A stretch of DNA of 59,090 nucleotides, the filler included. It is 7 parts of 7 records of this genome, joined end to end, with 100 filler letters (N's around TTAATTAATTAA, not from the genome) between each part and the next. Parts side by side here need not be neighbours in the genome. Positions count along the whole stretch, not along the records: positions 11,835 to 19,915 come from SRR31156797_72658; 6 more parts are not named here. One strand, 5' to 3'. Of this stretch, positions 5,709 to 51,887 are shown one piece after another. The notes beneath the pieces are model-generated. The model made no database searches, had not been told where the DNA came from, and saw only the letters and a program-made list of their open reading frames with translations. Positions within the stretch are counted from its first letter, which is position 1; each line of letters starts with the position of its first letter. A program made the translations under genes and the position numbers.

Positions 5709-5808
5709 NNNNNNNNNNNNNNNNNNNNNNNNNNNNNNNNNNNNNNNNNNNNTTAATTAATTAANNNNNNNNNNNNNNNNNNNNNNNNNNNNNNNNNNNN
5801 NNNNNNNN
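5709..5808. other. Artificial contig spacer
   Basis: 44 N + TTAATTAATTAA (stops in all frames) + 44 N. Confidence 0.99.
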
Positions 5809-5991
5809 CACATTGGCATGGCCGCTGATGATCAGGCCGACCTCCCCTTGGGCAAGGGCCACCAGGATCTCCGTGAGTCTGGGGGTAACGCCACCGTCAT
5901 CATCGGCCATGGCTTCGCAGGTGGCCGACCGTACAAACCGGTTTTTCAGCTCCAGGCTTCCAATGGATGTGGCTTTAAAAAGTAAATTCAT
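5809..5991 (-). CDS. NADH:flavin oxidoreductase (Old Yellow Enzyme family), 5' part, cut by contig end
   Basis: LKNRFVRSATCEAMA...LAQGEVGLIISGHA. Confidence 0.85.
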
Positions 5992-6647
5992 TGTTTCCGC
6001 TCCTTAAGTTTTTTCAGAGCCGCAAGTGTCTCTTCCGGTTCCGTGCGGTAGGAGTAATCCGGGTCAACATCTGCCGAGCGGATGACGGCATCTTGCCCGA
6101 TGACATAGCGGGCGGGAATGGCAAGGGTCCAGGAATTGTCGCCGTTGATCCTCTCAAGGTCCACCTCAAAAGAGTTGTAAATCTCTTTGAGATCGTCGGG
6201 GATGTGGAAAACGATACCGAACAGCCTTGCCACCGTGTTGCCGGCGTCGGCGAGAATTTCGAAACTGAGTCCCGAGTTCCGGACAATCTTCCGGTTAAAA
6301 GGCTTTCTCTGGGGGGAGATGGCCAAAACCGTCGCTCCTTCCGATTCAAATTGAGGCAGTGTGTTGTTCAGAGCTTCCAGCTCTGAAATGCAATACGGTC
6401 ACCACTCGCCCCGGAAAAAAGTGAGTACGAGGGGGCCTTTTTCCAGGTGTGAGGAGAGGGAAACCATATTGCCCTTTGTATCGGGAAGAGTGAAGTCGGG
6501 AACCTTGTCTCCAACCTTCAGGGCCTTTTCCAGGATACCTGAGTTCTTCAGGTCTTCGTTGACCCGGTGCATGATGGAGATCACCTCCCCGGGGGCGGTG
6601 TTTTCGAACTCGGTACGGATGGCGTCAAGTGTGTCTTGTAATTTCAT
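5988..6647 (-). CDS. Selenocysteine-containing peroxiredoxin-like (AhpC/TSA) protein, 219 aa, UxxC motif
   Basis: ORFs 6399-6647 and 5988-6326 are in one frame; reads FFRGEW-TGA-PYCISEL where the family has RGxWCPYC; SECIS-like hairpin directly downstream. Confidence 0.9.
6367..6387 (-). promoter_or_regulatory. Bacterial SECIS element
   Basis: mRNA UUCAGAGCU-GGA-AGCUCUGAA: perfect 9-bp stem with G-leading loop, starting 11 nt after the UGA at 6399-6401. Confidence 0.8.
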
Positions 6648-6945
6648 GGCACTGTCCTTTTTTGGGTTGGTGTCGTCATTGTCTCATCACCCTTGTTATT
6701 CTTTATTTGGACTTACAGGGTTACCATGGGCCGGTGCTTGCGGTGACTTGTTCCGGAAGCACCGGCCATGGGGGGCATTGGGTAACATTCGTAAATGCCA
6801 ATGGAGCTGCTGTTACACCATATGCGCCGGTACTATTTTTTCAGGTAGTTGTAACTGTCGTCCTCACGGTTTCTTTTTGCTTTATATTTATCTGCGAATC
6901 CGGATATTTCGCCAATTTGGGTCCGCGGGCTGTCCGGTTTTATGA

Positions 6946-7233
6946 TCAGGCGATTCGCCCGCAAATCGTGACGTCGGATTCCCCGTCCATCAATTCCATC
7001 ATGGCAGGAACGGTTTTTTTGAAGTGGTCGGAGACCAGGTGATTGTCAAAGGCGGCGCGGGTTTCCCATCTTTCCACGGCAACCAGGACCGACGGCGCTT
7101 CTTCCTCCTGATACATTTCATATTGAATGCACCCGTCCTCCTGCTTGGTCGGTTCGATCATCTCTTCGAACAGATCTACGAATGTGTCGACTTTGTCTTC
7201 TTTAACCTTCATTTTGGATATGACCTTAACCAT
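6946..7233 (-). CDS. Putative quinol monooxygenase (ABM domain)
   Basis: TKQEDGCIQYEMYQ, VERWETRAAFDNHL.S.HF. Confidence 0.9.
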   Translation of the reverse strand: MVKVISKMKVKEDKVDTFVDLFEEMIEPTKQEDGCIQYEMYQEEEAPSVLVAVERWETRAAFDNHLVSDHFKKTVPAMMELMDGESDVTICGRIA

Positions 7234-7287
7234 GGGGGCTCCTTTTTTTGTTGCGTAGTTGGTGTGAAAGTTGTTGTTTATGTTTTT

Positions 7288-7441
7288 AAACTAATCGTTC
7301 TGAATTGAGCCGAAAAAAGAGCATACGTTTGTCGCCAGAAAAGAGGCGAGTCGTATGCTTGTATCTACGGCTTAACAGCCCGTCAGCAATCATCATTGTT
7401 GCTGATGATGTCTTTTTAAACCAAACGTTCTGGTAAGTCAA
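7288..7441 (-). promoter_or_regulatory. Leftward promoter with two putative TetR operators (7288-7301, 7418-7431)
   Basis: Minus strand reads TTGACTtaccAGAACgtttGGTTT and AGAACgattAGTTT. Confidence 0.6.
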
Positions 7442-7645
7442 GGTAAAAAAATGCCCGGTTCTGAAAAATAAAACCACTGGGATCTGAGCCTTGCCGGCCT
7501 GAAATCAGGCCGGTCCTATAAAGGTAGGGGAATGTGTTGGGTGTAAAAAAAAGCTTTTAAAGCAGGGTGTTGTGTGTTTGTTTGAAGCTTTGCCCGCCAT
7601 GCCTGTTTAATGGGCGGGCTTGCCATCCTGACGGAAAGATTGTTC

Positions 7646-7674
7646 TTGACTTTATCAGAACGTTCGGTTAGATA
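7646..7674 (+). promoter_or_regulatory. tetR promoter with operator in the -35/-10 spacer
   Basis: TTGACTttatcAGAACgttcGGTTAgata; same architecture as the leftward promoter. Confidence 0.6.
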
Positions 7675-7709
7675 ACGCCTGCTGTTGACGGAGAAAAAAG
7701 GAAAGAAAG

Positions 7710-8291
7710 ATGGCACGAACCAAGGAATATGACCGGGACACCGTCCTGGATGCCGCAACCCGGATATTCTGGGCCAAGGGGTTCAAAGGAACCTCCATGG
7801 CCGATCTGGTCTCCGGAACAGGGCTCAACTGGCACAGCATGTATCAGGAGTTCGGCAGCAAGGAAGGGCTGTTCCGGGAGTGTATCGACAATTTTGCCCT
7901 GAAAACGACGAAAGAGGTCAACCTTATCCTGACCCGGGAACCCCTGGGACTCTGGAATATCGAGGCATTCTTCCGTAACCGGATAGACTACGCGTCCTCC
8001 CTGGAATGCAGCGGTTGCATGATGGTCAATACCGCCATCGAGAAAGAGCTGATCAATGGGAAGGCCTTTGCCCAGGTTCAGAAATATTTTTCCCGCCATG
8101 AAGAAGCCTTCTACCGCTGCCTGGCGGCCGCCCAGAAGGACGGGGAAATCGCCGGGGAAAAAGACTGCCGTGTGCTGGCGGGTTTTCTGTTTACCTTTGC
8201 AACCGGCACCATGGTGATGAGCAAGACCAATCCGGGCAGGGCATCCCTTGAAGCGAGGGTGAAAGTTGCGCTCTCCGTTATTAAAACGTAA
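7710..8291 (+). CDS. TetR/AcrR-family regulator (NemR/ComR-like)
   Basis: MARTKEYD...FWAKGFKGTSMADLV...SMYQEFGSKEGLF HTH; GCMMVNT in the C-domain. Confidence 0.92.
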   Translation: MARTKEYDRDTVLDAATRIFWAKGFKGTSMADLVSGTGLNWHSMYQEFGSKEGLFRECIDNFALKTTKEVNLILTREPLGLWNIEAFFRNRIDYASSLECSGCMMVNTAIEKELINGKAFAQVQKYFSRHEEAFYRCLAAAQKDGEIAGEKDCRVLAGFLFTFATGTMVMSKTNPGRASLEARVKVALSVIKT

Positions 8292-8395
8292 TTTTTTTTA
8301 ATCTTTTTCAGAACGTATGTTTTATTTTAAGATAGCTACCGGAGGCCTGGAAAATAACCCCGGCATCCCGTTTTTCTTTAAAAAAGGAGTTAGAT

Positions 8396-9526
8396 ATGAA
8401 AACCATATTCGATGAAACCCGGATCAATTCCATGGTCCTTAAAAACCGCCTGGTTCGCAGTGCCACCTGGGAAAACATGGCTGACGAAAACGGCCACCTG
8501 ACCGGAAAACTCTTCAAGGTCTATGAAGAGCTGGCCCGGGGCGGCGTCGGGATGATCATTTCCGGCTGTACCTTTGTCATGCCCGGGGACCAGTTCTATC
8601 CCGGAATGATGGGGATGTGGGAGGACAGCTTTGTGGCGGAGTACAGACGCCTGACCGACATGGTGCACAGCCACGGCAGCCGCATTGTCCAGCAGCTTGC
8701 CTACGGCGGCACCCAGGGCACCCGCCAGGCCGGGGACCTGCCCGTCTGGGGGCCTTCCGATGTCGCCGACCTTGCAACGGGCGTGGTCCCGACGCCCATG
8801 GGCAAAGTGGATATCCGAACCCTGACAAAGGCCTTTGGCGACGCCGCTGTTCGTTCCAAGGCGGCCGGTTTCGACGGGGTTGAGCTCCACGGTTCCCACG
8901 GCTACCTGATGGGGCAGTTCCTGAGCCCCCATTACAACCGTCGCAGGGACGAGTACGGAGGGAACATCGAGAACCGGGCACGTATCTATGTTGAGATCTA
9001 CGAGGAGATCCGGAATCGGGTCGGTAAAGACTTTTCCATCATGCTGAAGATCAACTCCGATGACTATATCGAGAACGGAGCATCCATGGAAGACTGCCGG
9101 TATGTGTGCTGGAAACTCGCCGGTATGGGCATCGACGCCCTGGAGATCAGCGGCGGCACCGCCGCTTCCGGCGAGTTCATGTCGAGGACCCGGATCAACG
9201 GCCCTGAAAAGGAAGCCTACCATGCCGAGTCCGCCGCCCGGATCGCCGGGGAGGTCAAGGTTCCCGTCATCCTGGTGGGGGGCCTGCGCTCCCCCGAGGT
9301 GATGGAAACCCTCCTTGGGAACACGGGGATAGAATATTTTTCCTTGGCCCGGCCGCTGCTCGCCGAGCCGGGTCTTCCCAATCGCTGGCAGCATGGGGAT
9401 CGCCGCCGGGCCAGGTGCATCTCCTGCAACGGCTGCCAGGGGGGAAGTGATGAGGGGAACATCTGCATTTTCAAAGACAAATTTGCAAAAAACACAGGAA
9501 CAACGAACAAGAAAGGAGAGAAATAA
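8396..9526 (+). CDS. NADH:flavin oxidoreductase (OYE-like)
   Basis: KNRLVRSATWE, AGFDGVELHGSHGYLMGQFLSP..N.R.DEYGG, C-terminal CISCNGC. Confidence 0.93.
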   Translation: MKTIFDETRINSMVLKNRLVRSATWENMADENGHLTGKLFKVYEELARGGVGMIISGCTFVMPGDQFYPGMMGMWEDSFVAEYRRLTDMVHSHGSRIVQQLAYGGTQGTRQAGDLPVWGPSDVADLATGVVPTPMGKVDIRTLTKAFGDAAVRSKAAGFDGVELHGSHGYLMGQFLSPHYNRRRDEYGGNIENRARIYVEIYEEIRNRVGKDFSIMLKINSDDYIENGASMEDCRYVCWKLAGMGIDALEISGGTAASGEFMSRTRINGPEKEAYHAESAARIAGEVKVPVILVGGLRSPEVMETLLGNTGIEYFSLARPLLAEPGLPNRWQHGDRRRARCISCNGCQGGSDEGNICIFKDKFAKNTGTTNKKGEK

Positions 9527-10152
9527 TGAAAGTATTGGGTATTTCAGGAAGCCCCCGGAAGGGCAAAACAACAGACCGTCTGGTACAGGAAGTGTTGAAC
9601 GGCATTGATGGCGAAACAGAGTTCATTTCCCTGCGCGGCAAACGGATAGGTCCATGCATCGGCTGCCTCGCCTGCGCCGATGACAACATCTGCAAGCTCA
9701 AGGACGACATGAAGGGGCTGCGGGAGAAGATCGTTGAAGCCGACGCCCTGGTGATCGGATCCCCCAATTACTTCGGCGGCATCAACGCCCTTACCCATGC
9801 CTTCCTGGAGCGCTTTTACCAGTTCCGGCACCGGGAAGCCATGACAATGGCGGGGAAGATCGCGGTGGCTGTCGGCGTCGGCGGCGGACTGCCCGAGCCT
9901 GCCGCCAAAGATATGGAGCGGTTTTTCGAAGCAAACGAGATCGAACTACTCGGCTCCGTAACCGCCCAGGGGGTTGCGGGTTGCTTCACCTGCGGATATG
10001 GTGAGGACTGCAAGGTGGGTGCGATTCACGGTTTCTTCGGACCGGGGACGAAAATCACCGAGGAGATCACCCCGGATCTCTGCAGGCAACCGGAAGCGGT
10101 CGAGAAGGCACGCGCCATGGGGCAGCAGCTGAGCCGGCGCCTCAAGGGATAG
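9526..10152 (+). CDS. Flavodoxin-family iron-sulfur flavoprotein / NADPH-dependent FMN reductase
   Basis: GISGSPRKG.T, CIGCLAC...C, GSPNYFG; extra CFTCGYGEDC. Confidence 0.88.
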   Translation: MKVLGISGSPRKGKTTDRLVQEVLNGIDGETEFISLRGKRIGPCIGCLACADDNICKLKDDMKGLREKIVEADALVIGSPNYFGGINALTHAFLERFYQFRHREAMTMAGKIAVAVGVGGGLPEPAAKDMERFFEANEIELLGSVTAQGVAGCFTCGYGEDCKVGAIHGFFGPGTKITEEITPDLCRQPEAVEKARAMGQQLSRRLKG

Positions 10153-11734: not shown

Positions 11735-11834
11735 NNNNNNNNNNNNNNNNNNNNNNNNNNNNNNNNNNNNNNNNNNNNTTAATTAATTAANNNNNNNNNN
11801 NNNNNNNNNNNNNNNNNNNNNNNNNNNNNNNNNN
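11735..11834. other. Artificial contig spacer
   Basis: N44-TTAATTAATTAA-N44. Confidence 0.99.
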
Positions 11835-11835
11835 C

Positions 11836-12264
11836 CTTCCCCTGACCCTGGCCATCATCGACGGCATGCTCGTAAAGGTCGGAACGGAAAAATTCGTAAT
11901 TCCCACCATCGCGATCCAGCGCTCCTTCCGCCCGGATAAAAAAGAGTGCTACACCGTGGAGAAAAAGGGGGAGATGATCAAGGACCGGGACAGCCTCATC
12001 CCGCTGATCCGCATGAAATCGGTCTGCGGCATCCAGGAGGATTCAAAACAGCCGTGGGAGAGTCTCGTGGTGGTGGTGGAATCAAAGGGTGAAGCCAGGG
12101 GATTGCTCATCGACGAGCTCCTTGGCAAGGATGAATACGTTATCAAGAGCCTTGGGGCCAACCTGGAGGAGATCCCCGGTTTTTCCGGCGGAGCGATCCT
12201 TGCCGACGGCAGGGTGGGATTGATTCTCGACATGTACGGCCTGTTCGAGATCGCCTCCGCCTGA
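11836..12264 (+). CDS. cheA: Chemotaxis histidine kinase CheA, C-terminal CheW-like domain (partial)
   Basis: LPLTLAIIDGMLV...IDELLG...VIKSLG...GGAILADGRVGLILD. Confidence 0.92.
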   Translation, partial: LPLTLAIIDGMLVKVGTEKFVIPTIAIQRSFRPDKKECYTVEKKGEMIKDRDSLIPLIRMKSVCGIQEDSKQPWESLVVVVESKGEARGLLIDELLGKDEYVIKSLGANLEEIPGFSGGAILADGRVGLILDMYGLFEIASA

Positions 12265-12291
12265 CCCCAGGCCAGAACCAAAGGTGATCCT

Positions 12292-12771
12292 GTGAAAATC
12301 ATCGTGGGTGTTTCTGACATGAAGGTGAGCAACAACCCCGGGGACGAGGTCGTTACCTACTCCCTGGGCTCCTGCATCGGCCTTGTGCTGTTTGATCCCG
12401 TTGCCAGGGTGGGGGGTATTCTCCACTACATGCTTCCGGAATCCTCCCTGGACAAGGAAAAGGCGGCCAACAAACCCTTCATGTTTGCGGACACGGGCAT
12501 TCCAAGGCTTTTCAAGCAGGCATACAAGTTTGACGCCATCAAGAAACGCATGAAGGTATCTGTGTTTGGCGGCGCCCAGATCCTGGACCAGAAGGGATTC
12601 TTCAACATCGGCAAACGCAACCACATGGCCTTGAAAAAGATCTTTTTCAAAAACAACGTCCTGATCGACCACGAGGATGTCGGGGGTAACGTCAACAGGA
12701 CGGTGAGGCTGGAGATCAAAACAGGGAATATCTATGTCAAAACCTCCGGGGCAAAGGAGGTGAAGATTTGA
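12292..12771 (+). CDS. cheD: Chemoreceptor glutamine deamidase CheD
   Basis: TYSLGSCIG, GGILHYMLP, FADTGI, FGGA, NIGKRN, EDVGG. Confidence 0.95.
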   Translation: MKIIVGVSDMKVSNNPGDEVVTYSLGSCIGLVLFDPVARVGGILHYMLPESSLDKEKAANKPFMFADTGIPRLFKQAYKFDAIKKRMKVSVFGGAQILDQKGFFNIGKRNHMALKKIFFKNNVLIDHEDVGGNVNRTVRLEIKTGNIYVKTSGAKEVKI

Positions 12772-13616
12772 CACCGATCCAGGAACTAATCAAAGAGATC
12801 CGACAGCTCACGCCCATGTCGCCGGTGGTGAACCAGATCATGGAAGCGGTGGACGCGCCCGGCTGCTCCATGGAAGATATCGCAAATATCGTCCAGTACG
12901 ACCCTGCCATGACGGCCAACATTCTTCGCACCTGCAACTCCGCCTATTTCGGCCTTCCCAATCCCATCGAGTCGATCAGGGACGCGGTGGCCATTCTCGG
13001 CATGGACCAGATCCTGGAGCTTGTGATGCTCAAGGCAGGCACCCAGGCCTTTGCAAAACCCCAGACAGGGTATGAGCTGGAGCAGGAGAAAATCTGGAAA
13101 TCCTCTGTCTCCTCGGCCCTGATCGCCAAGGAACTGGCAAAAAAACTCTGCCCGGCCCACCGGAACACCATCTTCACGGCAGCCCTGTTAAAGGATATCG
13201 GCAAAACCGTGCTCGACCGTTTCATCACCTCCTCCCGAGCAAAGATCACCACCCTTGTCAGGGAAGAGGGATACAGCTTCAGGGAAGCGGAAAAAAAGGT
13301 GATTGGGATCGACCATGCCGAACTGGGGGCCATGATCATGAAAATGTGGAAATTCAGCCCCCGGATGGTCAAGATCATCCGCCACCATCACCTGTCGGAC
13401 CCGACCATGCAAGAGGACCCAGACATCGCCATCGTCTACCTGAGCGACTGCATCTGCATGATGGCGGGCATGGGAACGGGGGCGGACGGCCTTGCCTATC
13501 GTTTCCACGACCAGGTGGTGGCAAACATGGGACTCACTTCCGACGATATCATGAAGATCATCGCAGGATTCACCCTGACCATGGAACAGGTCGAAGGGCT
13601 TCTGCAGATCGTATAA
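12768..13616 (+). CDS. HDOD-domain protein
   Basis: DPAMTANILRTCNSAYFG, AALLKDIGK, DHAELGA, IRHHH. Confidence 0.92.
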   Translation: MTPIQELIKEIRQLTPMSPVVNQIMEAVDAPGCSMEDIANIVQYDPAMTANILRTCNSAYFGLPNPIESIRDAVAILGMDQILELVMLKAGTQAFAKPQTGYELEQEKIWKSSVSSALIAKELAKKLCPAHRNTIFTAALLKDIGKTVLDRFITSSRAKITTLVREEGYSFREAEKKVIGIDHAELGAMIMKMWKFSPRMVKIIRHHHLSDPTMQEDPDIAIVYLSDCICMMAGMGTGADGLAYRFHDQVVANMGLTSDDIMKIIAGFTLTMEQVEGLLQIV

Positions 13617-13658
13617 CATTCTTACAACAGAAACGTAAATTCCCCCCGGGTGATGATT

Positions 13659-14078
13659 ATGGCATTTTCAATATTGATAGTGGATGATTCCAAGCCCATG
13701 CGCTCCGTGATAAAAAAGACCTTCAAGGCCGCAGGTTACGGCGGTTCCGATTACCATGAGGCGGCCAACGGCCTCGAAGCCCTGGAACGGCTTCAGGCCA
13801 GCTGGGTGGACATCGTGATCACCGACTATACCATGCCGGAGATGAACGGGCTGGCGCTCCTTGAGGCAATGAAACAGGACGAGCTGTTACGGACCATTCC
13901 CGTGGTGGTGATCACCACCGAAGGCAGCCGGCAACGCATCGACCAGTTCATGGCATCCGGGGCGGCCGGTTACATCAAAAAGCCCTTTACCCCGGAACAG
14001 GTCAGGGACATGATAACCTCAATTCTTGGAGAGAGCGATGAAGACGTTGACACCGACGATGATGACTTCGATTTCTGA
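13659..14078 (+). CDS. cheY: CheY-like single-domain response regulator
   Basis: ILIVDDS, ITDYTMPEMNG, ITTEG, YIKKPF; acidic tail. Confidence 0.85.
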   Translation: MAFSILIVDDSKPMRSVIKKTFKAAGYGGSDYHEAANGLEALERLQASWVDIVITDYTMPEMNGLALLEAMKQDELLRTIPVVVITTEGSRQRIDQFMASGAAGYIKKPFTPEQVRDMITSILGESDEDVDTDDDDFDF

Positions 14079-14478
14079 AGTGATGGAAACCATGTTCTTC
14101 CTCCCCCTGGAAGAGCAGGAGAAATCGAAAGTGGAGGAGGTGCTCGGGTCAGGGCCCCTCCATGCCTGCACCATCGACTTCACCGGGGCCTTCACCGGCA
14201 CCATGGCCCTTGTCGCCCAGGAGCCCCTTCTGTATGCCATGTCCGAAAACTTCATGGGAGAGGACAGGGAGTCCCTTACCCGGAAAGACCTTGAAGGGAC
14301 CCTCCAGGAGGCGCTGAACATGATCGCCGGCAACTGCTTCAGCAAGCTCGACCCCAACACCGTGGTCGACCTGGGGGTGCCGCAGATACAGGACACCCTG
14401 GATCAGGGGAGTTTCCCGGGGCACCTGGTGGTTATCACCACCGAGGGCATGCTGGCCGCCCTTTCAACCATTGAATAA
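14038..14478 (+). CDS. cheX: CheX-family phosphatase
   Basis: EVMETMFF, F.G.FTG, LQEALNMIAGN (ExxN motif); che context. Confidence 0.75.
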   Translation: MKTLTPTMMTSISEVMETMFFLPLEEQEKSKVEEVLGSGPLHACTIDFTGAFTGTMALVAQEPLLYAMSENFMGEDRESLTRKDLEGTLQEALNMIAGNCFSKLDPNTVVDLGVPQIQDTLDQGSFPGHLVVITTEGMLAALSTIE

Positions 14479-14498
14479 CGGCCCTGGCAGGGAGGTGA

Positions 14499-15545
<1,047 letters not shown>

Positions 15546-15683: not shown

Positions 15684-16343
15684 CTATCCATTACAAATCC
15701 GGGCCATATCCTGTATCAGAGGGGCCACCCGTTCCCTGTGCTCCGGGGGCACCATGAGCACCCTGGCCGCCTGGTTGCCGATGGTGACAAGACCGGTGCC
15801 CCGGGAACCGGGCGAAGCGGCCAAAATCATGTCCGACAGGTTGCCCGAAATCCCGTCACAATCCATCTGTTCGATGTACTGCATGAAAAGGTTGTTGACG
15901 GTCAACACAAGGGGGGGAAGGGTGGCCACCCCCACACGGCTGCAATCCTCCTGGGAGACAAGGCTTCTGCACCCGAAGGGCCGCGCCGGGTAGATGGCGC
16001 AGGTGTTGTCCTGCAGCAGGGGGCAGGCCCCCCAGGCGGGATCGTTCTCCTCCTCGGGAATCTCCCGGCCCTCCATACAAAGCCTGGCAAAACCGTTGAT
16101 GGTGGTCTTTGGCTGGAACCGTTTCCCTGCAAGGTTGTTTCCCACCCGCTCCGCGAGTGACGCAGCCTTTTCCGGACCGAGGGGTGCCGTGATATAATCA
16201 AGCTCCAGGGAGGTGAGGGTGACGTTGCAGGTGCAGCAGCTGGCGCACCCCTTGTGACAGACGAGGTCAGTCTTTGCCATGAAAGCGTCATAAAGGTCAT
16301 AGAGTTGCCCCAGTCTGTCAAGCCGTGAATCGTGTTGTGCCAT
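15684..16343 (-). CDS. YkgJ-family (CxxCxxCC) cysteine cluster protein
   Basis: CHKGCASCC, CPLL...CAIYPARPFGCR; ATG 16343 after AGGAGG. Confidence 0.88.
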   Translation of the reverse strand: MAQHDSRLDRLGQLYDLYDAFMAKTDLVCHKGCASCCTCNVTLTSLELDYITAPLGPEKAASLAERVGNNLAGKRFQPKTTINGFARLCMEGREIPEEENDPAWGACPLLQDNTCAIYPARPFGCRSLVSQEDCSRVGVATLPPLVLTVNNLFMQYIEQMDCDGISGNLSDMILAASPGSRGTGLVTIGNQAARVLMVPPEHRERVAPLIQDMARICNG

Positions 16344-16575
16344 TTTCCCTCCTGTTGGTTGATGATTGCCCGCCGATTGCTCGCCATTTTTACCATATCC
16401 CGGGAAGAATAAACAGGGCGCCGTCCCGATCAATACACATGACAAGGGTTTTGCGATTGACACGGGCCTTTTTTTTCTATAGGTAAAAGAACATATGGAC
16501 CATTGGCATTGATGTTAATTTCCGGAAAAAGGACTTCAGGCGATCGACTCAAACCCGTTGCATGGCATAACCGTT

Positions 16576-16929: not shown

Positions 16930-17101
16930 CCAACGTTTCCTATCCCCCCTGTCCCTGGACCCCCCAAGTCCCTATTGCTCCGATCCTGGAAGATCCGGAT
17001 TTCCTGTTCCGCCTTTTCCGGCTTGACAAGATCATGGCCGGTGCGATATGAGCCAGGTACGGTCCGGACAACAAAGCTGTCCGGTATCCTAAACAATTAA
17101 G

Positions 17102-17314
17102 GAGCTTTTTGGTGCCTTCCCCCAGGAAGGCCGAGGGTCCGGCAGAACGCCGGCCCCCGCAGGGAACCCGGTGTAAATCCGGGACGGACCCGCCGCTGTG
17201 AGTGAGGACGACCGCCGCAACCGGTCACTGTGCTGCAGGTTACAATGACGAAGCAGCATGGGAAGACGCGGCCATTAGGATGATCCACGAGTCAGAATAC
17301 CTGCCATGCAAGCG
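17102..17314 (+). ncRNA. Cobalamin riboswitch
   Basis: GGTGCC...AGGGAACCCGGTGTAAATCCGGGACGGACCCGCCGCTGTGA (17161-17201)...GTCACTG...GGGAAGAC...GAGTCAGAATACCTGCC (17289-17305, B12 box). Confidence 0.93.
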
Positions 17315-17340
17315 TAAACAGACGTTCTCGGAGAGATGGC

Positions 17341-17380
17341 AAATCCCCGGGCTGATTTTGTGTCGGCTGGGGATTTTTTT
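17341..17380 (+). terminator. Intrinsic terminator, riboswitch expression platform
   Basis: AAATCCCC...GGGGATTTTTTT hairpin plus U-tract between aptamer and ATG. Confidence 0.8.
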
Positions 17381-17460
17381 ATGCCGGCACACCTGGATCG
17401 TTCGGAAAGGTTACCTGGACCGGGCACCCGCCCATGGAAAACCGTCCGAGAGGAGGAGAT

Positions 17461-19341
17461 ATGACCCCATATCAACTGTTTCTGTGCCTGCTTCTTGCCT
17501 ACATCATGCTGCTCATCAGTGTGGGATGGTACTTCAACAAACGACAGCAAACCCAGACCGACTTCTGGCTTGCCGGAAAAAAAGCCGGGACGCTCTCCAT
17601 CGGCTGTTCGGCCGCGGCATCCTGGCTCACCGCCGGCGGCATCCTGGCCGTCACCGGTTTTTTCATGCTCCTGGGCATGGGATCCGTCTGGGGGTTTGTG
17701 GCCCCCAACATCATCGCCCTGTTCGCCATCGGCCTGTTTGTCAAAAAGATAAAAGGCCTGCCGGCCATCACCCAGCCCGAGCTCCTGGAGCTTCGCTACG
17801 GCAGCTATCTGCGGCTGCCCGTGGCCGTCATCATCACCGTTGTGATGATCCTCTTTGCCGTGGCGGACATCAAGGGTTTTGCCATGGTGCTGTCGACCTT
17901 CTACGACATCTCCCCCCTGGTGTCGGCCCTGATCGTAGCCCTTGCCGTCTCCATCTACGTCACCATGGGCGGGCTCTCCGCCGTGATCGCCACGGACATC
18001 ATCCAGTTTTTCTGCCTGGCCCTGTTTGTGCTCATCATGGCCGCCGTGGTGATGGCCAGTGCCGGCACCCTCTCCGCCCTGCCTGTTTCAGCCCTGTTGA
18101 CATCGGTACCCGACAACTGGTGGAACCCCTGTTCCATCGGCATCCCCATGGTGCTGATCTTCTCGGTGGCCATCATTCCCGGCTGGATCACGGAACAGGA
18201 CCAGTGGCAGAAGGTCTGGGCGGCAAAGGATGAGAAAAGCGCCCGGAACGGCATGATCCTGGGATCCGTCCTGGTTGCCGTGGTGTTTGCCGGCTGCGCC
18301 CTCCTGGCCCTGGGCCTCAACACCCTCTATCCCGACATTGCCGGGGCGGGATTTCCCATGGGAATGGCCAAGGCCGAGCCCGCCCTTCTCACCTTTATCA
18401 TGGAACACAGCTTCTCCGGGTTCACCCTGGCCCTCTGCGCCGTGGGCCTTGCCACCGCCGCCATGTCCTGCACCGACACCTTCGCCACCTCAGGAGCCTC
18501 CTGTGTCTCCCGGGACATTTTCCAGCGCTACCTCCATCCCGGTGCCACCATGAAGCAGATGCACCGGGTCAACCGGGTCAGCGTGCTGATCATCATCGCC
18601 TTTGCCACCCTGGGCTCCTTTTTCATCGACTCCATCATCGACGCCATCCACATCGCCACCTTTATCGCCAGCGCCTCCTACTTCTTTGCCCTCATGGGCG
18701 GGCTCTACTGGAAACGGGCCACCGGCCAGGGCGCCGTGGCCTCCCTTGTCACCGGGTTCCTGGCCCAGTCCGCCCTGGTGATCGTGGATCTGGCCAAAAC
18801 ACCGCCCATGACGCCTCCCTACCTGGAATCGATCCACCCGGTACTCATGGGACACGGGGTGATCCTGTCCATGGCGCTCAGCGGCCTTGTGTTCGTGGGC
18901 GTCTCCCTGGCAACGGCCCCCACCTCCCGGGTGCGGCTGGCCCTGTTCTTCAAAAAGGAAGCGGAACAACTGACCGCTGACATTGCCGGGACCAAACCGG
19001 CCCCGGCCATGGCACCCCCGGCAATCATGGACACCATCCAGGAACGCATCCTGGGTGACCGGACCATCCTCCACCTGAGCTGCGACCTCCTTGGCACCCT
19101 TGAGTGGAAAAACTTTGTAAAAGGCCTTCAGAACTCAGGTGACCACTGGGTGTCGGCGTCGGGACTCGAATCGGTCCGGCGGATCACCCACCCGGACATC
19201 CTCTCCTGTGTGTCGGTCACCCGGGGAGAAACCGACGCCACCCTGTGGCTGGAGGCGGAAGCCCAAACCGGCAGCCTGGAGCGGGTGAAGCAGGAGCTCT
19301 CCCATGCCTACACCGAAATTCTCACAGTGGTTAAGGGGTAA
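17461..19341 (+). CDS. Sodium:solute symporter (SSS) family protein with extra soluble C-terminal domain
   Basis: DFWLAGKK, T.PELLELRYG, YVTMGGLSAVIATDIIQF, AAMSCTDT, GLYWKRAT; ATG after AGGAGA. Confidence 0.92.
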   Translation: MTPYQLFLCLLLAYIMLLISVGWYFNKRQQTQTDFWLAGKKAGTLSIGCSAAASWLTAGGILAVTGFFMLLGMGSVWGFVAPNIIALFAIGLFVKKIKGLPAITQPELLELRYGSYLRLPVAVIITVVMILFAVADIKGFAMVLSTFYDISPLVSALIVALAVSIYVTMGGLSAVIATDIIQFFCLALFVLIMAAVVMASAGTLSALPVSALLTSVPDNWWNPCSIGIPMVLIFSVAIIPGWITEQDQWQKVWAAKDEKSARNGMILGSVLVAVVFAGCALLALGLNTLYPDIAGAGFPMGMAKAEPALLTFIMEHSFSGFTLALCAVGLATAAMSCTDTFATSGASCVSRDIFQRYLHPGATMKQMHRVNRVSVLIIIAFATLGSFFIDSIIDAIHIATFIASASYFFALMGGLYWKRATGQGAVASLVTGFLAQSALVIVDLAKTPPMTPPYLESIHPVLMGHGVILSMALSGLVFVGVSLATAPTSRVRLALFFKKEAEQLTADIAGTKPAPAMAPPAIMDTIQERILGDRTILHLSCDLLGTLEWKNFVKGLQNSGDHWVSASGLESVRRITHPDILSCVSVTRGETDATLWLEAEAQTGSLERVKQELSHAYTEILTVVKG

Positions 19342-19347
19342 TCATCC

Positions 19348-19915
19348 ATGAACCAAGGTTTTCAAAACGCCGACCCGGCCCACCACGATTTCCAATACCT
19401 GGAAGATCTCTCCACGGCCTACTGGTATTCCCAGGTGCTGTTTACCGCCCTGGAGCTTGAAATTTTCACGTTCCTGGACCGGGGCACCTCCACCCTGCCC
19501 GAGCTTGCCGCGACCATGGATTGCCGGGAATCCGAGCTGTTCCGGCTCCTCAGGGCCATGGAATCCATGGCCCTTGTCTGCCACGACAGGGAACACTGGT
19601 ACAACGCCCAGGTGTCCGCCCTTTTTCTCGTCCCGGACCGGGAAGGATACATGGGGGATTTTTTCCTCTACCGCCAATACATGGCGCCCAACTGGACAAA
19701 GCTAATAGAGAAGGTCTCCGGCCGGGAACGGAAAAAGGCCGAGGAACTCGACTACAGGGAACGCAACCGCCGCTATGTGAAATCCATGGACACCCTGGTG
19801 AAGCAGAAGGCCCCGGAGATTGCCGCCCTGGTGGCAAAAGAAACCATGACCGGCCCGGTCCTGGATGTGGGGGGCGGGGCGGGCAGCCTTGCCCGGGCGA
19901 TCCTTGCAGAGAGCC
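19348..19915 (+). CDS. Dimerisation-domain O-methyltransferase, BzaC-like (partial)
   Basis: QYLEDLSTAYWYSQVLFTALELEIF wHTH dimerisation domain + VLDVGGGAG SAM motif; B12-riboswitch operon. Confidence 0.75.
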
Positions 19916-20015
19916 NNNNNNNNNNNNNNNNNNNNNNNNNNNNNNNNNNNNNNNNNNNNTTAATTAATTAANNNNNNNNNNNNNNNNNNNNNNNNNNNNN
20001 NNNNNNNNNNNNNNN
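19916..20015. other. Artificial contig spacer
   Basis: N44-TTAATTAATTAA-N44. Confidence 0.99.
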
Positions 20016-31031: not shown

Positions 31032-31131
31032 NNNNNNNNNNNNNNNNNNNNNNNNNNNNNNNNNNNNNNNNNNNNTTAATTAATTAANNNNNNNNNNNNN
31101 NNNNNNNNNNNNNNNNNNNNNNNNNNNNNNN
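31032..31131. other. Artificial contig spacer
   Basis: N44-TTAATTAATTAA-N44. Confidence 0.99.
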
Positions 31132-40034: not shown

Positions 40035-40134
40035 NNNNNNNNNNNNNNNNNNNNNNNNNNNNNNNNNNNNNNNNNNNNTTAATTAATTAANNNNNNNNNN
40101 NNNNNNNNNNNNNNNNNNNNNNNNNNNNNNNNNN
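40035..40134. other. Artificial contig spacer
   Basis: N44-TTAATTAATTAA-N44. Confidence 0.99.
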
Positions 40135-51787: not shown

Positions 51788-51887
51788 NNNNNNNNNNNNN
51801 NNNNNNNNNNNNNNNNNNNNNNNNNNNNNNNTTAATTAATTAANNNNNNNNNNNNNNNNNNNNNNNNNNNNNNNNNNNNNNNNNNNN
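51788..51887. other. Artificial contig spacer
   Basis: N44-TTAATTAATTAA-N44. Confidence 0.99.

Follow-up and report, generated by a model that had tools for sequence, protein, structure and literature searches.

A riboswitch-controlled SSS transporter joined to lower-ligand tailoring genes: a candidate importer of benzimidazole bases in anaerobes

The cobamide that a microbe can make or use depends on its lower ligand. In the accessible text of PMC8123684, the classical bza operon has the gene order bzaC-bzaD-bzaE, and CblT/CblS is the only uptake system for lower ligands named in the available parts of that review and of Shelton 2018. Here, we analyzed a window of 59,090 nucleotides (nt; the whole stretch of DNA under study), in which a cobalamin riboswitch precedes a gene of the SSS transporter family and the first part of a gene for a BzaC-type O-methyltransferase. 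In relatives, these genes belong to an operon that very probably supplies, under B12-riboswitch control, the tailoring half of the anaerobic route to the lower ligand, and we consider, with a probability of about 0.6, that the SSS protein is an importer that would salvage a benzimidazole base when cobamide is scarce.

CblT is a substrate component of the energy-coupling factor (ECF) type that, together with a kinase, handles the riboside. The CblT-CblS salvage of alpha-ribazole in Firmicutes is similar to this locus in having a dedicated transporter for an environmental lower-ligand precursor that is linked to cobamide genes, whereas the architecture here is that of SSS (LeuT fold) and the partners CobT and BzaC act on the base. 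The SSS protein matched PF00474 and no other family; it is therefore not of the CblT family, and the likeness lies in the proposed role only. The pyrimidine and thiazole carriers controlled by thiamine pyrophosphate (TPP) riboswitches are salvage transporters for vitamin precursors. They are comparable in that a cofactor riboswitch represses both the biosynthesis genes and the carrier of the intermediate, in organisms that also make the intermediate, but they belong to other transporter families and serve another cofactor and other substrates. The SSS protein would thus be of a known kind, a riboswitch-controlled carrier of a cofactor precursor, and its family, substrate class and spread across domains would be new. 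In the literature outside subscription journals and bioRxiv supplements, we found no transporter for benzimidazole, 5,6-dimethylbenzimidazole (DMB) or another lower-ligand base, and no SSS protein tied to a B12 riboswitch.

The riboswitch, the transporter and the methyltransferase

The full-length aptamer of a Cobalamin riboswitch (RF00174) is located at positions 17093-17322 on the plus strand. The cmscan match scored 99.2 bits (gathering score 31.5; E = 1.3e-23), spanned model positions 1-189 of 189, and was the sole gathering-level Rfam match in the whole window. The expression platform that follows is an intrinsic terminator at about 17342-17381 on the same strand, composed of a G+C-rich hairpin (about 17342-17375) and a U run to about 17381. 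The terminator scan found an inner stem at 17350-17368 plus a T tail, and RNA folding gave a hairpin of about 15 pairs at 17342-17375 followed by UUUUUUU, with a fold z-score of -1.7, the energy by itself being unremarkable. The original prediction had named both a complete cobalamin riboswitch and a terminator directly 5' of the SSS gene; the Infernal/Rfam check bore out the former, and the terminator scan and the RNA fold the latter. The hairpin and U run lie 20 nt past the aptamer and ahead of the SSS start codon, which predicts an off-switch platform, and the best explanation from the sequence is that ample cobamide would silence the operon by terminating its transcription.

The longest open reading frame (ORF) after the terminator, at 17434-19341 on the plus strand, encodes an SSS-family transporter of 635 amino acids (aa). 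Its PF00474 match covers aa 44-441 and profile positions 1-406 of 406, with 106.3 bits against a cut-off of 22.8. The ATG at 17461 is a more likely start than the ORF start at 17434, because GAGGAGG precedes it and relatives are 624-629 aa long. All ten NCBIfam subfamily models of SSS that were listed fell under their cut-offs (the best was TIGR00813, 123.6 against 184), and therefore no substrate is predicted from the sequence. The nearest solved structures were vSGLT, SGLT1, SiaT and CHT1 (E from 1e-10 to 1e-16), with vSGLT 2xq2 as the best (E = 8.4e-16). In the vSGLT alignment, the invariant residues A342, S345 and C346 face A361, S364 and S365, and the Ser-Ser pair of vSGLT opposite this Ser-Cys is part of what we take to be the Na2 site. 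The transporter thus shares the PF00474 core with the characterized SSS proteins (vSGLT, SGLT1, SiaT, CHT1, PutP, PanF and ActP), but differs in passing no subfamily model, in having Ser-Cys where vSGLT has Ser-Ser, and in a unique C-terminal domain.

This cytoplasmic domain of about 130 aa (aa ~503-635, nt ~18940-19338, plus strand) is specific to the family: there were 40 matches among 1.84 billion representatives, all of them full-length SSS proteins or fragments. Its structural model (pLDDT 83) has an alpha/beta fold. Foldseek found nothing in the PDB at E <= 0.001, and the VIA wide structure search reached a top Z of 8.8 (TATA-binding protein and the C-terminal domain of phosphoglucomutase), which is the background level and gave no functional lead. 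A short form of the transporter without this domain is 71-74% identical over the core. Altogether, 574 homologues were detected, including those of Desulforapulum autotrophicum HRM2 (85% identity), of Desulforhopalus and Desulfopila (60-65%) and of many Methanosarcinales, and their source annotations are generic names throughout. The mean column identity is 60% in an alignment of 17 sequences from both domains of life. A tree of 96 SSS proteins contains one archaeal clade and two bacterial clades, the latter 55-65% identical to each other.

The methyltransferase gene was predicted to begin 6 nt after the SSS gene and to encode an enzyme with a dimerization domain, and this was confirmed: its ATG at 19348 follows the SSS stop codon by 6 nt, and PF08100 (Dimerisation in methyltransferase) matched aa 13-95 with 51.5 bits. 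The first 189 codons (19348-19915, plus strand) encode the dimerization domain and the start of the S-adenosylmethionine (SAM)-binding domain, and the SAM-binding-type motif VLDVGGGAG was seen just ahead of the contig break at 19915. Over 186 aa, this N-terminal part is 84% identical to a 508-aa methyltransferase-DUF2284 protein of the closest relative locus, L001, which carries PF08100, PF00891 and PF10050 (DUF2284). The two domains typical of BzaC, a dimerization domain and a class I O-methyltransferase domain, are therefore present, the second being read in the L001 orthologue. The genomic setting typical of BzaC, with cobT and/or bzaD-bzaE under a B12 riboswitch, was found in relatives, and on its own contig the riboswitch and the N-terminus are present. 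Its relatives of solved structure are O-methyltransferases acting on small molecules, with hydroxyindole O-methyltransferase (4a6d, E = 8e-15) among them, and the NCBIfam scan of the methyltransferase gave no BzaC match. These results support a BzaC-type enzyme, whose membership rests on genomic context.

The operon in relatives and its link to cobamide genes

A scan with one genome per species yielded eight loci, three in Desulfobacteraceae/Desulfobacterium metagenome-assembled genomes and five in Methanosarcinales. The SSS proteins of the former (L001, L002 and L003) are 94%, 91% and 86% identical to the one described here, and those of the five Methanosarcinales loci 47-61%. In all three bacterial loci the order is riboswitch, SSS, methyltransferase-DUF2284, a BzaD-like enzyme and a BzaE-like B12-radical-SAM enzyme. 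The B12-binding radical-SAM protein of L001 has TIGR04385 as its best match by about 200 bits (401.1 bits against an equivalog cut-off of 450), and that of another locus, L039, also by about 200 bits (424.4 bits, still under the cut-off); we therefore call it BzaD-like. The third enzyme is of the B12-radical-SAM kind, with weak matches of the BchE type or the B12-radical-SAM type, and the libraries searched contain no BzaE model. In Shelton 2018, as far as its tables list the organism, D. autotrophicum is entered as 'bzaFC', that is, the BzaE hidden Markov model (HMM) of that study made no call there. The stretch of the operon that includes the BzaD-like and BzaE-like genes spans 11915-16257 in L001 and 9602-13976 in L039. 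Genomic context had been set beforehand as the point on which the BzaC assignment could fail, and it spoke in favor of the assignment, with the BzaD-like and B12-radical-SAM enzymes following in three relatives.

The genomes of L001 and L002 (G001 and G002) contain a second ThiC paralogue, BzaF, which separates from the ThiC copies in the tree and has its own Cobalamin riboswitch 5' and cobT directly 3' (TIGR03160, 421 bits). The pathway is therefore split into riboswitch-bzaF-cobT and riboswitch-SSS-bzaC-bzaD-bzaE. This arrangement is similar to the classical bza operon in its B12-riboswitch control, in a methyltransferase gene followed by two B12-radical-SAM genes, in the BzaD model as best match, and in the BzaF-cobT pair, which the genomes with the SSS operon keep behind a separate riboswitch. 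It differs in that the pathway is divided between two operons, a transporter gene comes first in the tailoring one, the methyltransferase carries a fused DUF2284, and the BzaD-like proteins score 401-424 bits, below the cut-off of 450.

The methyltransferase-DUF2284 fusion is widespread in Desulfobacterota, with 444 matches. For the top 120 of these 444 (487-564 aa), the precomputed Pfam annotation gives DUF2284, O-methyltransferase and dimerization domains, and unfused methyltransferases of 335-380 aa are scattered among the fusion matches. DUF2284, expected by the original prediction in the neighborhood, does occur with the operon, not as a separate neighbor but fused to the methyltransferase itself in relatives. 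It is a predicted metal-binding domain (aa 341-508 of the L001 protein, gene 11915-13441) that is joined to the BzaC-type enzyme in hundreds of Desulfobacterota proteins and, according to NCBIfam, also to arsenite methyltransferase; in both fusions it may serve methyl transfer in a similar way. The listed portion of Supplementary Table 8 of Shelton 2018 gives 'bzaFC' for Desulfobacterium vacuolatum, Desulfospira joergensenii, Desulfobacterales RIFOXYA12_FULL_46_15 and D. autotrophicum HRM2, and we found the methyltransferase-DUF2284 protein in the first three and the SSS protein in the fourth, which supports the BzaC assignment indirectly. A second type of methyltransferase, 28% identical, follows bzaF-cobT in another genome (G674), and the role of BzaC may be filled by two methyltransferase lineages.

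We then compared the bacterial loci drawn from genomes of the same order and from 80 metagenome loci, a set that includes archaeal loci. A Cobalamin riboswitch was found ahead of the SSS gene or its operon in 21 of the 28 bacterial loci with upstream DNA; three further loci that begin inside the SSS gene were left out of the 28. Rfam confirmed 19 of the 21, and the two recognized by nhmmer only encode SSS proteins identical to those of the Rfam-confirmed L034 and L027. In at least 11 of the 21, riboswitch and SSS gene stand alone with no bza or cob gene adjoining, and therefore the SSS gene itself is a member of the B12 regulon. Ten ORFs near such stand-alone genes (five of 83-120 aa and five larger) showed no mutual similarity and no conserved partner. 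The SSS gene adjoins bzaC in eight loci; a bzaC-D-E operon lies behind the short SSS form in L039, SSS-bzaC stands at contig ends in L052 and L055, and in one genome (G593) a riboswitch lies directly 5' of the methyltransferase gene.

The metagenome locus L066 has the order riboswitch-cobT-methyltransferase-SSS, and its methyltransferase (340 aa, without DUF2284) is 48% identical to the L001 enzyme. This operon converges with cbiR-cbiB-cobD-like aminotransferase-cobS-cobU (5732-10107), in which CbiR, a remodeling phosphodiesterase, scored 264.9 bits against a cut-off of 105. The cluster is similar to the CbiR remodeling clusters of Akkermansia, as far as they are described in the accessible text of PMC7733943, in that CbiR and cbiB-cobD-cobS-cobU converge on cobT-bzaC-SSS, and it supports a logic of remodeling plus a new base; it differs from the L001-type relatives, in which no CbiR is near the SSS gene. 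The neighborhood check thus upheld the proposed linkage of SSS homologues to cob and bza genes, through the 21 riboswitches, the eight bzaC loci and the cob cluster of L066. Elsewhere, a xylose-isomerase-like TIM barrel and a cobT fragment lie 5' of the riboswitch-SSS pair in L040. Riboswitches for molybdenum cofactor (Moco) and TPP flank two SSS loci (L041, 1-115, and L028, 2229-2338, both on the minus strand) and are probably unrelated to the SSS gene.

The B12 regulons of three whole genomes were also read. G457 has a stand-alone riboswitch-SSS and a riboswitch-bzaF-cobT, and no methyltransferase-DUF2284 was found in this genome. G518 has a stand-alone riboswitch-SSS, a riboswitch-cobT and CobS; the one ThiC-family gene in this genome belongs to the ThiC type, and neither BzaF nor a BluB above the cut-off was found in it, although draft genomes can miss genes. 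Subject to such gaps, this gene set is the pattern expected of a predicted base salvager. G457, G518 and G001 together have 27 Cobalamin riboswitches, and the first ORF was read after 26 of them, one partial match at a contig start being left out. Five of the 26 first genes were already known (BzaF twice and SSS three times). The other 21 encode CbiK (three), TonB-dependent receptors (four), BtuF-like proteins (three, one of them fused to CbiZ), a FecCD permease (BtuC-like), CobT, a CobQ-type amidase, RACo, AraC-type regulators (two), an HMA_2 protein, a cytochrome-c-assembly-like membrane protein and three proteins without family.

Three gene arrangements in the B12 regulons are unusual. A RACo-type corrinoid reactivase lies directly behind a Cobalamin riboswitch in G001 (L146, 1814-3217), the BtuF-like binding protein fused to CbiZ lies behind another in G457 (L141, 2-1441), and in G003 CobT is fused to an ADH_N domain in a protein of 715 aa (L132, 385-2532).

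What the transporter may carry

If the transporter imports a base, low cobamide would lead to read-through of the terminator, and the SSS protein would be expressed together with the tailoring enzymes. Its substrate would be a free benzimidazole base present outside the cell, with 5-hydroxybenzimidazole or something closely derived from it as the likeliest candidate. CobT, under its own riboswitch, would activate this base, and the methyltransferases of the operon would tailor it. With the base taken up, the cell would not have to convert a purine precursor by radical-SAM chemistry. The accessible text of PMC4230183 reports free benzimidazoles in the environment. Of the module for lower-ligand import put forward in the original prediction, the linkage to cobamide and bza genes is supported; the substrate, import over export and coupling to Na+, like the chemistry of the three methyltransferases, are what we infer from sequence.

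The archaeal homologues bear on this reading in two ways. Members of the Methanosarcinales are reported to use a 5-hydroxybenzimidazole cobamide. Among sampled genomes, the SSS gene occurs in 91 of 151 from the order of Methanococcoides (Methanosarcinales) and in 51 of 301 from its phylum, and methanogens are described as users of the 5-hydroxybenzimidazole cobamide in the available part of PMC7617358, so that the archaeal distribution gives circumstantial support for a link to this cobamide. The surroundings of the archaeal genes are different: a riboswitch was found in none of 5 genome loci and 60 metagenome loci. Recurrent neighbors include a TIM-barrel protein (4 of 14 SSS clusters), a radical-SAM gene and DUF5803, and may reflect inherited synteny, all within one order. 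The TIM barrel was considered as a CbiR equivalog and rejected: it scored 34 bits (cut-off 105), and it shares 28% identity with the CbiR of L066 over 103 aa.

Several observations weigh against the import of a base. The commonest archaeal neighbor is not a cob gene but a MetE-like methionine synthase, in 5 of the 14 SSS clusters (NF004712, 514-551 bits; for example, L044 1471-2565 and L100 10414-11442), and a BzaF-like paralogue is present in both archaeal genomes examined. On the bacterial side the family is rare, with the SSS gene in 8 of 301 sampled genomes of the order, and 7 of the 28 loci are without a riboswitch: five have a short SSS after an SNF-family transporter, L036 lies behind a MobB gene, and L108 has less than 430 nt of upstream DNA. 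BzaF is present in G001, G002, G457 and G593, and synthesis there does not depend on import; the close relatives G001 and G002 are not base auxotrophs, and import in them, if any, is salvage alongside synthesis. The usual assumption is that free benzimidazoles need no carrier to pass through membranes, and diffusion of DMB is discussed in the accessible text of a Salmonella study (PMC10468695). Finally, the contig analyzed here gives the methyltransferase only to codon 189. In the sampling of the whole phylum on the bacterial side, the SSS gene was found in 1 of 401 genomes, the starting genome alone.

The five riboswitch-less loci with the SNF-family transporter form a basal bacterial subclade of short SSS proteins (L029, 7271-10767; L030, 7616-10555; L031, 9411-12452; L072, 1-3179; L079, 940-3798), which may have another substrate or another regulation.

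Among the other explanations, the one that survives best, and that we still regard as unlikely, is that the SSS protein imports another precursor of the nucleotide loop: the alpha-riboside of the base (alpha-ribazole type), nicotinate for the donor of CobT, or aminopropanol or threonine. The riboswitch and the cob and bza contexts fit such a substrate equally, the SSS gene of L066 adjoins cobT, cbiB, the gene of the CobD-like aminotransferase, cobS and cobU, and CblT, the known salvage transporter, carries the riboside and not the base in the available part of Shelton 2018. However, the tightest and most repeated partner of the SSS gene is bzaC, in eight loci, whose product acts on the benzimidazole moiety, and in G518 the other partner under a riboswitch is cobT, whose product takes the free base. 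No CblS-type kinase was noticed in the operons examined, though no search aimed at one was made.

It is quite improbable that the transporter serves as a bypass, supplying the cell under B12 scarcity with something that B12-dependent metabolism would otherwise make. Methionine would be the most plausible such product, since the three methylations of the operon depend on SAM and could draw on it as well. B12 riboswitches classically govern B12-independent substitutes, the MetE-like methionine synthase adjoins the archaeal SSS genes in the clusters mentioned above, and the SNF family with which the short bacterial form is paired includes amino-acid carriers. Yet no B12-independent substitute enzyme (metE- or nrd-type) is among the identifiable first genes behind the riboswitches of G457, G518 and G001, all of which belong to cobamide synthesis, uptake or reactivation. 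In these genomes the riboswitch governs cobamide supply, which argues against a bypass role. Such a role is also hard to square with co-transcription with cobT-bzaC in L066 and with bzaC-D-E, and the archaeal neighborhoods may be the synteny of one order.

We give little credence to a carrier of an unrelated solute, or to an exporter that detoxifies benzimidazoles, placed in the operon for reasons other than salvage. The NCBIfam subfamily models lie far under their cut-offs and predict no substrate, the riboswitch is absent from a quarter of the bacterial loci (7/28) and from all archaeal ones, and in Salmonella DMB has a toxic effect as an antagonist of flavins, according to the accessible text of PMC10468695. 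Against this, the riboswitch link holds across the two bacterial clades and several gene arrangements. The characterized SSS members are importers, and it would make little sense for the finished cofactor to repress an exporter. Two further candidates were rejected: a carrier that feeds corrinoid-dependent catabolism, for instance with methylated amines, which the riboswitch would repress just when the substrate is usable, and an importer of corrinoids or cobinamide, which is disfavored by the presumed limit on substrate size and by the BtuB/BtuF/BtuC-type genes already present under other riboswitches of these genomes.

Flanking genes, 5-methylbenzimidazole and the meaning for cobamide biology

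The window consists of seven contigs split by six N44-TTAATTAATTAA-N44 linkers, and the riboswitch and the SSS gene lie on the contig at 11835-19915. The six identical linkers (5709-5808, 11735-11834, 19916-20015, 31032-31131, 40035-40134 and 51788-51887; no strand) are artificial joints without biological meaning. The sequence after 20015 belongs to another contig and is therefore not a genomic neighbor of the methyltransferase gene, and neighborhoods cannot be read across the joints. The other six contigs of the window gave no match to BzaC, BzaD, BzaE, BzaF or CobT and no second Cobalamin riboswitch. Upstream of the riboswitch, the ORFs at 11866-15545 (plus strand) have the look of a chemotaxis cluster (CheW-, CheD-, HDOD-, CheY- and CheB-like), as judged by eye alone, and a Cys-rich protein of 259 aa is encoded at 15684-16463 on the minus strand. 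The same upstream genes, the chemotaxis-like ORFs and the Cys-rich protein, precede the L001 operon, and the riboswitch contig is 91.7% identical to L001 in DNA across all 8.1 kb.

D. autotrophicum HRM2 makes a 5-methylbenzimidazolyl cobamide, as entered in Table S6 of Shelton 2018, which cites Kräutler 1988 for it. The 'bzaFC' call for this strain predicts the 5-methoxybenzimidazole form, which does not match the recorded cobamide, and our literature search found no genetic account of 5-methylbenzimidazole synthesis. The BzaD-like and BzaE-like enzymes of the Desulforapulum/Desulfobacterium operon, which score below threshold, are obvious candidates for the missing steps, and they may make 5-methylbenzimidazole rather than DMB. 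The operon may thus account for the mismatch between the predicted 5-methoxy and the found 5-methyl base. In the listed portion of Supplementary Table 8 of the same study, Desulfosporosinus sp. I2 and D. youngiae have bzaCDE only; bzaCDE without a 5-hydroxybenzimidazole synthase therefore implies salvage of the base by some route in these two.

As a whole, it is possible, and we put it forward tentatively as somewhat doubtful, that the SSS protein is the missing dedicated importer of free benzimidazole bases, horizontally shared by sulfate-reducing Desulfobacterota and Methanosarcinales, including the anaerobic methanotrophic archaea ANME-2, and that its operon is possibly a route to 5-methylbenzimidazole. 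On present sequence evidence, the SSS protein would be the first good candidate for an importer of a lower-ligand base. A transporter that travels with cobT, bzaC-D-E and cbiR provides a testable gene and a genomic marker for base salvage, and with such a marker, cobamide type and cross-feeding would be better predicted, for instance where a genome has an incomplete bza set (bzaCDE alone, among others). The spread in Methanosarcinales ties the SSS protein to methanogenesis and anaerobic methane oxidation, whose organisms are heavy users of corrinoids. If base import is true, microbes of anoxic sediments would be trading in the lower ligand itself.

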